IMG/VR virus record: IMGVR_UViG_3300035698_029289 | Span: 9,980-73,979 of that record | Strand: one strand, 5' to 3' | DNA: 64,000 nucleotides | From: a virus | In this document: positions 11,022 through 47,047 of the stretch, one piece after another | Numbering within the stretch: the first letter of the stretch is position 1 | How the letters are laid out: every line of letters starts with the position of its first letter | Translations under genes and position numbers: made by a program | Notes under the pieces: generated by a model | What the model was told of the DNA's origin: nothing | Databases searched by the model: none | Seen by the model: only the letters and a program-made list of their open reading frames with translations

Positions 11022-11930
11022 ATGGCGTGGGGATTAATTACATATCAAGATGCCGCGCGTAGAGAAGATCTATTGGATGTTATCGGAGATGTATCTCCTG
11101 ATGAGACTCCACTTTTGACTCTTTTCGGCACAAGCACGGCAAAAGGAACTCTGCACGAATGGCTGGCATACTCAGTCTCAAGACCAACTTCGGTATCTGC
11201 CGATGTTGAAGGAGCTGATACCACATTCGGAGATTTGACTCAACCCAACAGAGTAGTCAATGTTACCCAAATTATTAAAGAACCGGTTCAAGTTTCTCGA
11301 ACCGAGCGACGGGTTAATGTGGCTGCAATGGGAGATCCGTATGCTTTCCAAAAAGCAGAAGCACTTCGTCGTCTAAAAATGAATATGGAGTATGCTTTAC
11401 TGAATGCTGCGAAAGCCTCTGGATCGTCTGGTTTGGCTCGTCAAATGAATGGAATCGATGCTTTCATCACAACTACTGTTACTGCTCGAAACTCAGGAAC
11501 TTCGTTTTCTGAAACTGAGCTAGAAGCTATGGTTTCTGATGCCTGGACAACAGTCGATCCCGACAAGGTATTTGACATGCTTCTTTGTACTTTCAAAATC
11601 AAGCAGAAAATTGCCGGGTTCTCTGGAAACTCTACTAGATATATTGATGCAACTGAACGAAGACTTGTTAAAGACGTGTTGGTTTATGATTCCGCTGGTG
11701 GATCTCACAGAATCTTTGCACACAAAGATGTGAGGAACTCAGCAGGTTCAACAACTATCTTGGGCCTACGAGAAGATTTGTACAAGACTGCGTATCTCGA
11801 CAAACCAATGTTTGAAGAACTTGCTAAAACAGGTGATGCGGACAAGGGTCACTGGGTAACAGAATTTACGCTTGAGTCTATAGCAGAGAAGGCTAGTTTG
11901 AAGCGAACAGGGTATAATCAAAACGGGTAG
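11022..11930 (+). CDS. major capsid protein (DUF5309/SU10-like HK97 fold)
   Basis: REDLLDVI..SPDETP, HEW, EGAD, NVTQI, ELAKTGDA..GHWVTEFTLE. Confidence 0.92.
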   Translation: MAWGLITYQDAARREDLLDVIGDVSPDETPLLTLFGTSTAKGTLHEWLAYSVSRPTSVSADVEGADTTFGDLTQPNRVVNVTQIIKEPVQVSRTERRVNVAAMGDPYAFQKAEALRRLKMNMEYALLNAAKASGSSGLARQMNGIDAFITTTVTARNSGTSFSETELEAMVSDAWTTVDPDKVFDMLLCTFKIKQKIAGFSGNSTRYIDATERRLVKDVLVYDSAGGSHRIFAHKDVRNSAGSTTILGLREDLYKTAYLDKPMFEELAKTGDADKGHWVTEFTLESIAEKASLKRTGYNQNG

Positions 11931-11982
11931 TAATACCCGAATGGTTGATATTTTATCCTGGTTTTGGTAGTATGAGAATACT

Positions 11983-12402
11983 ATGAAAACCAAAAGTTGC
12001 ACTTTTAAAGCTTGTAATAGAAAACATTATGCCAAAGGTTATTGCCGAAAGCATTACCGACAGCGTATTGGTGAATCTGCCACTAGATGGCAAGTAATTA
12101 AATCTGATCCTGTTCTTTATGAACATTGGAGAGAACTCCAAAGAAAATGGAGCAGAAACCATAAAAGGGATCATCGGAAACATTCTGATAAAATCTACTT
12201 TGGTGGTAACAGAGAAATTGCGATTCAGCGAGACAATGAAAAGTGTGTTCGATGTGGAATGACACGGGAGGAACATCTTGCCAAATGGAAGAAAGACCTT
12301 CATGTTAATCACAAAGACCACACTAAAAGGAATGATTTGGATAATCTTGAAACATTATGTCTTCCTTGTCATGCTTCTAAAAGTCACTATAGTAAGAGAT
12401 AA
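11983..12402 (+). CDS. HNH homing endonuclease
   Basis: YCRKHY; RDNEKCVRC...LHVNHKD...NDLDNLETLCLPCH; own promoter TTGATA-17-TAGTAT ~11945. Confidence 0.9.
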   Translation: MKTKSCTFKACNRKHYAKGYCRKHYRQRIGESATRWQVIKSDPVLYEHWRELQRKWSRNHKRDHRKHSDKIYFGGNREIAIQRDNEKCVRCGMTREEHLAKWKKDLHVNHKDHTKRNDLDNLETLCLPCHASKSHYSKR

Positions 12403-12550
12403 AATTACCTTGGTTTAAGTTACAACCAGAACGGTTAAGGTGTAACATAGGCTTAGAGGGAGACAAAAAACATGCGGACATTTACCGCATTACCCTTGAA
12501 TAAAATAAATGCGCACTCTATGAACTGCCAAAGTTTGCATAGAGTACAAA

Positions 12551-12940
12551 ATGCCAAAGACAATAGTTTATGACAAATTATCGGGAAAACTGCGAAGATG
12601 GATGGATGTCCAAGACGCAGAACATATAGTGCAACTTAGAAAAAAGAAGGGCAAGTGGACCGTCATTAAAGATTTAATTAAAATATGGATGGAAAGAAGC
12701 CCTGAGGAATTCAAAGGGTTTAAAGTTCATTTGAAAGACATTAAAGAAACGAGGCTTGACAAGAAATTCGGTCAAACACATAGCAAGAAACAAGAGAGAA
12801 GGTTAATATTGGTATTTCCGATGGCCTTACAGTCTCTTATCAGAACGATATATTCATCAAGTGAATTACCATTTAACCGAGCCTTTTTTCATGAGTTCGG
12901 TAAAAGATTCCGGATTTTTCAGATTCCGGAAAAACTATAG
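12551..12940 (+). CDS. hypothetical head-region protein
   Basis: 129 aa ORF in the head operon. Confidence 0.65.
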   Translation: MPKTIVYDKLSGKLRRWMDVQDAEHIVQLRKKKGKWTVIKDLIKIWMERSPEEFKGFKVHLKDIKETRLDKKFGQTHSKKQERRLILVFPMALQSLIRTIYSSSELPFNRAFFHEFGKRFRIFQIPEKL

Positions 12941-44199: not shown

Positions 44200-44493
44200 A
44201 TGAAAGAAAGGTTGTGGAAGGCAATATCAGAAATAGACGGAGAAATCTTTTCTCTGGGAATGAAAGATGCCGAAATAATCCGCTTACCTGAAAGTGAATG
44301 GATTGAAGGAGGAGAACATGGTATTTTTGCGACAAGACATAAGTCAGATGCCGAAAAAGTTATTTACTCTGCCGAACATAGAAAGGTTTTGTCAATACCA
44401 TTAAACATGAAAGTGATACCTATTATTGGTGAGATAAAGGATGATAGAGGGAAGACAGTAGTTTGTGAAAGGATTTTAATAGAAGGTGAATAA
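44200..44493 (+). CDS. hypothetical protein
   Basis: 97 aa ORF overlapping the next start. Confidence 0.6.
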   Translation: MKERLWKAISEIDGEIFSLGMKDAEIIRLPESEWIEGGEHGIFATRHKSDAEKVIYSAEHRKVLSIPLNMKVIPIIGEIKDDRGKTVVCERILIEGE

Positions 44494-46453
44494 AGAAATA
44501 GGATTACACTATTTAGGGGGTGACTTTAAGACAAGAACCCAAATCAGACGGAAACTTCTCTCTGAGGAGTTGACTGCTCCGCTCCAATTAACAAAACCTG
44601 CTTTAGTTAGAACCTTCGCTGAATGGCAGCCGATTATAAACAGACGGCAAAAAGAATACCAGGAACTCCTTGGAATACCAGAAACAATCCACATTGAAAT
44701 CGCTACTGAAAAACCAATCCTGCTTGTCCCCATAGGGGATGTTCATGCCGAGCATCCTGAAACCAATCTTGAACAATTTGGTAAAGACATAGATTTAGCA
44801 AAATCAGTTAATGCGTATTTTATCACTTTAGGAGATTTAACCAATAGTATCTTCTGGAAAGCAGAACCTTCCTTAATGACTGCCCAAGAGTCAACAATGT
44901 ATATCAGGTCGGCCTTGAAATATATGGCGGAAGATGGACACCTTTTGGCTTCATGGCTTGGCGACCATGATTGTCTTGATGAGAAAACGGAAGTATATAC
45001 AAAACGAGGTTGGTTAAAATGGAATGAGCTTAATGAAAAGGATAATCTTTTGACTATAAACCCCGATGGTGGGTTGTTAGAATGGCATAAATACGAAAAG
45101 AAAATTGTTGAAGATTTTGATGGAGAGCTAATTCATATCAAGGGTAAAAATATTGACTTGTTGGGAACAGAAAACCATCGGGTGTTTTATCAAAAGCGAA
45201 GAACTGATAAATATGATTTTATCCCCTTGGAACAGTTTGCTAGTTTAAAGTGGGCAGACCATTATGGAATTCCTAATGCTTCAACTTTTAATTTTAGTGA
45301 TTATCCGATATCAGATGAACTAATTCGATTGGTGGCGTGGTTGATTACTGATGGGTGGATTCAAACAAGAAAAGGCTATGGTTATCAACGGGTATGTTAT
45401 ACACAAAAGGAAGAGGATGCTCATTTAATTACTGATATTTTGGATGGACTTGGTTTTAAGTATTCTGCTAAAAGAAGGATTAGAACAAGAGATAAAATTG
45501 ATGGCATGAAAATTAAATCCTTAAAGCCATCTATTGATATAGGAGTTTGTTCCAAAGATTCTAAGAAAATTTTAGATTTGATTAAAGATAAAAAATCCAT
45601 GCCGTCATGGGTTTATAAATTGAGTGATAGGCAGTTTGACGCTTTTCTGGATTCTTTGATTGATGGTGATGGAACTCGGCTTCCGAGAATGAAGAATTGT
45701 GCTTGTTTCTATCAAAAGAGCAAGAAATTGATTGATGAATTACAGGCTTTGTGTGCGATGCACAATATTAAAACCAACATTTACGAGTATAAAAACCGAA
45801 TGGGGAATAAGCAATATCGGCTCAATATAAATTTTAGGAAAGACACTCGATTGGTTTCTCCAAAAGCGGTTAGAGAAAATTACAAGGGGAAGATTTGGGA
45901 TGTTTCAATACCACCTAACAGAAACTTCTTTGTTAGAAGAAATGGCAAAGCGTATTTTACTGGTAATTCTTGGGCTTTTGACAAACACGGAAGCCATACA
46001 CTTTACGCTGATTTTTGGGAGAAGTTTAACGCCCATTTACTAGACGGAGTATCTTATGTTGATATTGGACTTAATAACGGAGATACAGTCCAGAAATACG
46101 GGATAGTTGGCTCTCATCGCCACCCTGGCCACAGTATCTACAATTCCAGCCATCAATGTTTAAGACAATGGAGAGATGAGGGAGTAGGGTCTCTTATTAG
46201 TATTTCTGCTCACAAACACACTAAGGCCCATAATCAACAAACCCATAAACTTTATGGTGGAAAAGAGGTTGTGTTTCATTCTGTTGCCATAGGAACATAT
46301 AAAGAATCAGACCGATATAGCAGAAAACACGGTTGGCCACGCAAGGGAGAAAAGACAGCTGGAGCGTTTGGAATAGTGCTTTATCCAGGCAAGGAAAAAA
46401 TTCACATTTTCTGGGAATTAGAAGATGCGGTAGACGCACTAAGCAAGGCTTGA
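44486..46453 (+). CDS. calcineurin-like metallophosphoesterase containing an intein
   Basis: GDVH, GDL, GDHD, HRH, AHKHT motifs. Confidence 0.85.
   Translation: MNKEIGLHYLGGDFKTRTQIRRKLLSEELTAPLQLTKPALVRTFAEWQPIINRRQKEYQELLGIPETIHIEIATEKPILLVPIGDVHAEHPETNLEQFGKDIDLAKSVNAYFITLGDLTNSIFWKAEPSLMTAQESTMYIRSALKYMAEDGHLLASWLGDHDCLDEKTEVYTKRGWLKWNELNEKDNLLTINPDGGLLEWHKYEKKIVEDFDGELIHIKGKNIDLLGTENHRVFYQKRRTDKYDFIPLEQFASLKWADHYGIPNASTFNFSDYPISDELIRLVAWLITDGWIQTRKGYGYQRVCYTQKEEDAHLITDILDGLGFKYSAKRRIRTRDKIDGMKIKSLKPSIDIGVCSKDSKKILDLIKDKKSMPSWVYKLSDRQFDAFLDSLIDGDGTRLPRMKNCACFYQKSKKLIDELQALCAMHNIKTNIYEYKNRMGNKQYRLNINFRKDTRLVSPKAVRENYKGKIWDVSIPPNRNFFVRRNGKAYFTGNSWAFDKHGSHTLYADFWEKFNAHLLDGVSYVDIGLNNGDTVQKYGIVGSHRHPGHSIYNSSHQCLRQWRDEGVGSLISISAHKHTKAHNQQTHKLYGGKEVVFHSVAIGTYKESDRYSRKHGWPRKGEKTAGAFGIVLYPGKEKIHIFWELEDAVDALSKA
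44972..45967 (+). mobile_element. intein with LAGLIDADG endonuclease (332 aa)
   Basis: GDHD|CLDEKTEV...TENH...WLITDG...LIDGDG...YFTGN|S. Confidence 0.93.
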
Positions 46454-46528
46454 AAATAAGATGTCCAGTATTTTCTTTTCTTATTGGAGAAATGGTATAA
46501 TAATGAAAATGAGGACAGAATAAATATT

Positions 46529-47047
46529 ATGCCAAAAGGAGTTTATTTTCGTACTGAAGCAACTAGAAAGAAAATAAGTGAAGCCCGTATGGGTAAAAAG
46601 CTTTCTGAAAAAACTAAACGGAAATTGAGTGAAATTCATAAACGGATTGGCACTAGGCCACTTTCTCGTAAAGGCATCATTTTGAGTGAAGAGCTTAAAA
46701 AGAAACTAAGTAAAATTCATAAAAAAATCGGAACTATGCCGCCACACCCTAAAGGAAAAGACCATCCTAACTGGAAAGGTGGCTTCTCGCTTTATCCTAT
46801 TGATTGGACAGAAACCCTAAAAGAATCTATCAGACAAAGAGATAACTGTGTTTGTCAGTTATGCGGAATACATCAAGGCGAATTAAAAGGATTTCATAAG
46901 AAACTAGATGTTCACCATATTGATTATAATAAAGATAATCTAAATCCAGACAACTTGATTTCACTTTGTAAAAGTTGTCACTTGAAAACTAATTATAATC
47001 GGGAATATTGGCTTGAATATTTTCAACAAAAGGAAGTGAAAATATAA
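46529..47047 (+). CDS. NUMOD3 + HNH homing endonuclease
   Basis: SEKTKRKLS repeats; RDNCVCQLC; LDVHHIDY; NLISLCKSCH. Confidence 0.92.
   Translation: MPKGVYFRTEATRKKISEARMGKKLSEKTKRKLSEIHKRIGTRPLSRKGIILSEELKKKLSKIHKKIGTMPPHPKGKDHPNWKGGFSLYPIDWTETLKESIRQRDNCVCQLCGIHQGELKGFHKKLDVHHIDYNKDNLNPDNLISLCKSCHLKTNYNREYWLEYFQQKEVKI

Follow-up and report, generated by a model that had tools for sequence, protein, structure and literature searches.

The window analysed here is a 64-kb stretch of the 73,979-base IMG/VR virus record IMGVR_UViG_3300035698_029289, which comes from an uncultured phage; the features of the capsid locus described below lie on its plus strand. The gene for the major capsid protein (MCP), at positions 11022 to 11930, encodes 302 amino acids, is complete without splicing and matches PF17236 (SU10_MCP) with E=3.5e-64. 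The protein has hundreds of close homologues, nearly all of 302 amino acids, and more than 100 of this size align over 100% of its length; its identity to any phage capsid of the INPHARED GenBank phage collection does not exceed about 33%. Read directly from the sequence, the protein ends with YNQNG-stop (11913-11930). The next conserved gene (12551-12940, 129 amino acids) served as right-hand synteny anchor, tblastn placing its homologue directly after the capsid gene in relatives. It is preceded by a native intergenic leader of 112 nt (12439-12550), which is colinear with the leaders of loci L002, L004, L025 and others. As a side observation, a conserved structure, composed of a GGCT..GGGAG box followed by two hairpins, is present in this leader and in the matching stretch of about 70 loci, and HNH cassettes are always inserted upstream of it.

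Between the capsid gene and the leader lies a free-standing HNH endonuclease gene (11983-12402, 139 amino acids), recognised by PF01844 (E=1.5e-5, 25.5 bits for a cutoff of 21.4) and by the HNH families of PHROG. It is a separate open reading frame with its own start, the capsid frame being closed before that start. In the HNH protein alignment, the CxxC, HxNH, D/H and N residues do not vary, so that the nuclease motif is intact, and homologues carry modules characteristic of homing endonucleases (NUMOD1, NUMOD3 or Endonuclease_7). Our search for a close relative that has been characterised returned none, the best PDB match being a phage HNH protein of 130 amino acids (E=0.1). The N-terminus also contains a Cys/His module (C-x-C ... 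HY-A-x-G-x-C-x-x-HY) that matches no Pfam family; one to three copies of it precede otherwise different HNH domains, in the window (11983-12070) and in L047, L086, L078, L021 and L115, and it may be a shared DNA-binding module for the capsid-tail target. Elsewhere in the window (44486-47047), a 655-aa open reading frame appears to hold a LAGLIDADG-type intein, as judged by eye from its motifs, and a second free-standing HNH gene with NUMOD3-like repeats (46484-47047, 187 amino acids) follows this putative intein frame. The genome of the window therefore carries several selfish nuclease elements.

A second YNQNG-stop is found at 12421-12438, separated by 18 nt from the stop codon of the HNH gene, whose reading frame it shares. 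When a degenerate pattern for YNQNG-stop was run over the 64 kb, exactly two matches were obtained, at 11913-11930 and 12421-12438, for 0.00 expected (100 shuffles), which confirms the observation of an earlier note on this DNA that two such ends flank the HNH gene. Five synonymous differences, all at third-codon positions and with the stop codon counted, distinguish the two copies. The earlier note had called this an almost full recoding: the description is adequate for the two copies, but the recoding is not exceptional, given that 10% of the pairs formed among 34 natural YNQNG-stop tails from relatives differ by at least 5 nt. We therefore rejected it as a statistically exceptional feature, a 5-nt difference falling within natural variation (p about 0.1).

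To place the two copies, we collected the corresponding loci of relatives, 28 from viral contigs and 80 from metagenomes. In 78 related loci that have no insertion, and hence no HNH gene, the capsid gene runs straight into a tail of the downstream type, as the note had expected of HNH-less relatives, and the homologue of the next gene begins 50 to 208 nt past the capsid stop, a range that includes the length of the leader in the window. The downstream copy (12419-12438, composed of the last 2 nt of the Gly297 codon, YNQNG and the stop) is joined to no open reading frame and matches these tails. It is identical to the tails of L002 and L075 (18/18), and to L075 with the two preceding bases included (20/20); 14 of the 78 distinct relatives have tails within 1 nt of it. 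Since it equals the tails of relatives and is followed by the native leader, we consider it to be the original end of the resident gene, stranded in its original context. The translated copy (11910-11930, composed of the Gly297 codon, YNQNG and the stop) stands at least 3 nt away from the tails of all 78 distinct relatives, and its GGG and TAG codons are each present in only 1 of the 34 natural YNQNG tails. An HNH-less relative ending exactly with the upstream codon set, which the note had held to be incompatible with its proposal, does not occur among them, the closest differing by 3 nt.

The fact that direct repeats flank the inserted gene could also call to mind a local duplication (target-site duplication or replication slippage) followed by divergence, or else an assembly artefact. 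We judge both extremely improbable. After a duplication, the copy free of constraint should have drifted at least as much as the other, but here it is the unconstrained copy that is identical to the tails of relatives, and the constrained one that has all five differences. An artefact is countered by the presence of the same capsid protein and of the same HNH protein on three contigs each, and an assembler would not be confused by 18-nt repeats that differ at 5 positions. Because the stranded copy is pristine and the translated copy accounts for all five differences, the translated tail appears to have come from another lineage rather than from local duplication and drift. This comparison of tails thus establishes, at the level of sequence, a foreign origin for the translated tail and a native one for the stranded tail.

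What brought the translated tail is indicated by L003, the only other locus at which the HNH subfamily of the window was found together with its DNA (66% amino-acid identity); a scan with the HNH alignment returned L003 alone from viral contigs, and nothing from metagenome or genome contigs. The sole match to a DNA pattern of the left end of the cassette was L124, an unrelated sequence hit by chance. L003 has the same Gly-Tyr-Asn codons in its tail, and the same decayed relic after the stop. In the window, this relic is an older copy of the capsid tail that abuts the capsid stop (11931-11948) and has 3 mismatches to the tail pattern; its last bases are the -35 element of the predicted HNH promoter described below. 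About 7 matches of this quality are expected per 128 kb searched, and a chance match at exactly this spot is unlikely. Homologous relics are found in L003 and, with 1 mismatch, in L047 at 2489-2506. As the codons of the translated tail and the relic are common to the window and L003, the tail was brought in by the cassette; this bears out the proposal of the earlier note that the HNH cassette supplies the end of the capsid gene. A quick capsid tree groups the window with L041 and places L003 beside the HNH-less L002, such that the window and L003 are not sisters and the distribution of the cassette does not follow capsid descent. Identity between the window and L003 is 32/38 nt at the left boundary versus some 72% in the rest of the gene, a weak rise that is suggestive only; sliding-window comparisons between the window and L003, and between L003 and L002, its sister without an HNH gene, did not detect a sharp co-conversion boundary. 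Regarding L003, we also noted that its HNH open reading frame has no ATG, GTG or TTG at the position homologous to the start in the window (L003:3971-3990); either ATA or ATC, behind a strong Shine-Dalgarno site, would have to act as start codon, or expression has been lost.

The HNH gene has a patchy distribution: absent from the 78 loci, it is present at the same spot in about eight. Insertions between the capsid gene and the next gene are restricted to the window, L003, L007/L069 (the same contig), L047, L078, L086, L021 and L115, and an HNH gene, or what remains of one, is found in each case. These genes belong to three or more unrelated types of HNH, and the copy of L007 is broken. The last eight codons of the capsid gene are a hotspot for mobile elements. 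The broken copy (L007:4195-4515), located after a capsid gene that contains an intron, corresponds to the two-domain HNH of L078, but is shortened and interrupted by an in-frame stop; it is a decay stage in the life cycle of a homing endonuclease. In L098 and L100, the capsid match is about 260 nt too long, corresponding to further insertions elsewhere in the capsid gene; that of L098 was not recognised by Rfam.

This distribution also bears on the function of the HNH protein. A weak match to a terminase-small-subunit PHROG (E=1.6e-5), together with the phage protein that is its best PDB match, would be in keeping with a packaging-associated nuclease that works with terminase, of the HK97 gp74 type, and that is not mobile. 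Yet the terminase genes lie some 5 kb upstream and do not adjoin the HNH gene, the same spot is occupied in different relatives by at least three unrelated HNH types, one of them broken, and a gene that 78 related loci do without cannot be essential. A role in packaging is therefore very unlikely.

Whether the locus contains an intron is a question raised by relatives. A group I intron is present in L007 (45.6 bits), between the Arg295 and Thr296 codons, and another in L047 (52.9 bits), inside the Tyr298 codon; both are located 2 to 5 nt from the insertion point of the window. In each of them, an ORF-less intron within the capsid tail stands just upstream of a free-standing HNH gene. It could thus be supposed, all the more as introns in phage capsid genes are known (PMC3706429), that 11931-12420 is an HNH-bearing intron, the spliced RNA taking the downstream tail as exon 2. 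We find this highly improbable on four counts. The search that detects introns in L007, L047 and L089 gives no Rfam intron in the window between 10800 and 13100 at E<=10. The insert has only 52 + 18 nt (70 nt) outside the HNH open reading frame, which leaves no room for a group I core. The capsid frame already ends with a full conserved tail, and the codon before the junction ends with A or G, not with the U needed at a group I 5' splice site. The earlier note had argued that no intron is needed; in keeping with this, no intron core was detected and the capsid frame is complete as it stands.

The introns of relatives deserve a few remarks of their own. Those of L007 (3861-4085) and L047 (2271-2471) are homologous, about 75% identical in their core, and inserted 7 nt apart; their guide sequences differ, each being suited to its own site. 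This looks like an intron that moved or was retargeted within the hotspot. In L047 (2264-2506), an unspliced RNA would continue the capsid frame into the first bases of the intron (P1 loop and 3' arm) and end with YSQTG-stop; this substitute tail fits the natural tail variants of the capsid family, and the intron may thereby offer a fail-safe tail for unspliced RNA. The intron is followed by exon 2 (NQNG-stop), after which another tail relic directly precedes the HNH promoter. A third group I intron (43.5 bits) is located near the 5' end of the capsid gene in L089 (11-204).

The stranded tail itself could be the scar of a single event. According to this explanation, the cassette is normally intergenic and follows the capsid gene, as in L003, and the stranded tail is a by-product, devoid of any role in mobility, of one imprecise repair that was homologous on its left side and non-homologous, or based on microhomology, on its right side. 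L003 indeed has the same cassette without a stranded tail, and a full second tail is present only in the window, out of 121 loci. Moreover, the 16 nt that separate the HNH stop codon from the stranded tail and form the right-hand junction (12403-12418) have no similarity to native capsid sequence upstream of the tail. On the other side, L047 contains two more copies of the tail past the one that is translated, and decayed relics belong to the cassette in the window, L003 and L047. The closest homologue of the HNH protein, P0122 (71% identity), extends beyond the usual C-terminus of the family and ends with QNG, the last three residues of the capsid protein, as if its open reading frame had been read into a tail relic; this protein sequence gives a hint of recurrence. 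Taken together, the end of P0122, the stacked tails of L047 and the relics within cassettes suggest that repeated tail stranding is typical of the locus, and we consider a one-off scar improbable, although it retains more than a marginal chance.

The earlier note had also endowed the cassette with its own promoter, and a promoter-like site is indeed located between the capsid stop and the HNH start and conserved in seven cassettes. A promoter scan places there a predicted sigma-70-type promoter (11945-11973), with TTGATA, a 17-nt spacing and a TG-extended TAGTAT; when the seven HNH cassettes are aligned, no block past the capsid stop is invariant except the -35 and -10 columns. Folding prediction adds an RNA hairpin (11959-11992) whose 5' arm includes the -10 box and whose 3' arm includes the HNH start codon. 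The 86-nt stretch from 11925 to 12010 folds at -26.2 kcal/mol (z=-4.16), and none of 200 shuffled sequences folds as well. The same layout is found in L021, L115, L047, L086 and L007, with z from -5.1 to -6.0, and a U-run follows the hairpin in L021 and L115; it was not seen in L003. The HNH start has no good Shine-Dalgarno site, and an RNA initiated at the predicted promoter would be nearly leaderless. Read-through RNA from the heavily expressed capsid gene might fold the hairpin and bury the HNH start codon, whereas RNA from the promoter of the cassette would start inside the hairpin and leave the HNH translatable. In the T4 genes I-TevI, I-TevII, I-TevIII and segB and in Aeh1 mobE, a hairpin similarly hides the translation start on read-through transcripts, and a promoter located inside or beside the hairpin gives transcripts that are unable to form it (PMC2988022). 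The predicted elements of the window would follow the logic described for I-TevI, segB and mobE (PMC2988022), with the difference that the T4 hairpins hide the Shine-Dalgarno site and involve late promoters, while in the window the start codon itself is predicted to pair with the -10 box. Independently of this, the best promoter-like match of the region (12366-12393, 10/12 positions) lies within the 3' end of the HNH gene and faces the downstream leader; it is not conserved in L003, and could restore transcription of the downstream genes.

We propose that 11910-12418 is a free-standing HNH homing-endonuclease cassette that replaced the 3' end of its target gene, having entered at the Gly297/Tyr298 codons, and we give this reading a probability of roughly 0.7. 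The cassette would carry its own version of the last six codons and stop, the decayed tail copy that is the source of the -35 element, the HNH gene and a short spacer. By supplying its own end to the capsid gene, it leaves the capsid frame complete without an intron or an intein, and the tail of the recipient would persist at 12419-12438, no longer translated, in front of the native leader. From this arrangement, we infer that, during co-infection, capsid alleles devoid of the cassette would be nicked or cut by the endonuclease close to the Gly297/Tyr298 codons, that the current allele may be immune, as the earlier note had proposed, and that the predicted promoter would be used. Repair would then copy the cassette from the donor genome, with the capsid gene as left homology arm, and the stranded tail and leader as right homology arm.

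A wider claim can be built on this proposal, which we advance tentatively, as a possibility that falls short of being probable: tail replacement might be a regular, self-propagating route by which free-standing homing endonucleases enter phage genes. The mobile unit would consist of a resistant tail, a promoter with hairpin and the HNH gene, the stranded native tail would act as right arm, its start would mark the cleavage site, and the hotspot would record several stages side by side. Were this true, these stages would be an endonuclease adjoining its target, an endonuclease that carries a replacement tail, an intron without an ORF accompanied by an endonuclease, and, in L047, an intron from which a substitute tail can be read in frame; they would make up a natural series showing how a site comes to be shared by endonucleases and introns. 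The hotspot, which combines three or more HNH types, introns at two positions and stacked relics, is in any case a compact natural system for the co-evolution of endonuclease, intron and target allele. For annotation, a short stranded gene end after an HNH gene may serve as a marker of the target of the endonuclease and, roughly, of its cut site. Nucleases of this kind may also act in the competition between co-infecting phages (PMC11620839).

Elements that replace the end of their host gene have been described in other settings. In fungal mitochondria, mobile ORFs (mORFs) have formed 'gene hybrids' with atp6 in Allomyces macrogynus, and with atp6, atp9, cox2 and nad3 in Glomus (PMC3630166). 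As in the window, an endonuclease open reading frame is found near the 3' end of an essential gene, a foreign and synonymously diverged C-terminal coding piece is read in phase, and the native C-terminal piece is kept downstream, identical or nearly identical to that of close relatives (PMC3630166). For the Allomyces and Glomus hybrids, foreign origin was argued in the same way, by opposing a pristine native copy to a diverged translated one (PMC3630166). The mORFs differ in that they encode LAGLIDADG or GIY-YIG enzymes, are located in the genomes of organelles and replace a stretch of tens to hundreds of codons (PMC3630166), whereas the cassette of the window has an HNH enzyme, resides in a phage, replaces six codons, and has a predicted promoter and hairpin of its own.

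The WHO elements of the yeasts Torulaspora and Lachancea home into FBA1, and each integration replaces the 3' end of this gene (PMC7282813). They resemble the locus of the window in that the old 3' end is pushed downstream, where it becomes a homology arm (a role that the stranded tail of the window would share), that repeated invasions stack fragments, and that no splicing is needed (PMC7282813). They differ by their proteins, which are intein-like enzymes fused to zinc fingers, by their action at meiosis on nuclear DNA, and by the length replaced, about 400 bp (PMC7282813). Cleavage and allele specificity have been demonstrated for WHO (PMC7282813), while the cassette of the window is known here from its sequence.

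Among phages, a free-standing HNH gene within an essential coding region, with no intron, has precedents in T4 mobA with the gene 60 bypass and in Aeh1 mobE in nrdA (PMC2988022). In both of these, the host gene is split into two polypeptides, whereas in the window a new end supplied by the element keeps the capsid gene in one piece. The T4 mobA/gene 60 case reportedly also needs translational bypass, a point ascribed to Bonocora et al. in 2011. L007 and L047, where an ORF-less intron stands beside an HNH gene, are rather reminiscent of 'collaborative homing', which is described for the free-standing F-CphI beside the psbA intron of cyanophage S-PM2 (PMC6083498); the window, which is without an intron, differs from them in this respect. 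The solutions known for phage endonucleases in essential genes are thus gene splitting, as in Aeh1 mobE and T4 mobA, or residence of the endonuclease in an intron or intein. Part of the link between collaborative homing and L007/L047 is said to go back to Zeng, Bonocora and Shub in 2009. The replacement of a gene end would be a third route into an essential gene for a phage homing endonuclease, besides self-splicing and gene splitting. A phage example of a homing element that replaces a 3' end was not found in our searches of open-access text. The kind of element is known from fungal mitochondria and yeast; what is new here is that it is found in a phage, with an HNH enzyme, and with a replacement tail of only six codons.
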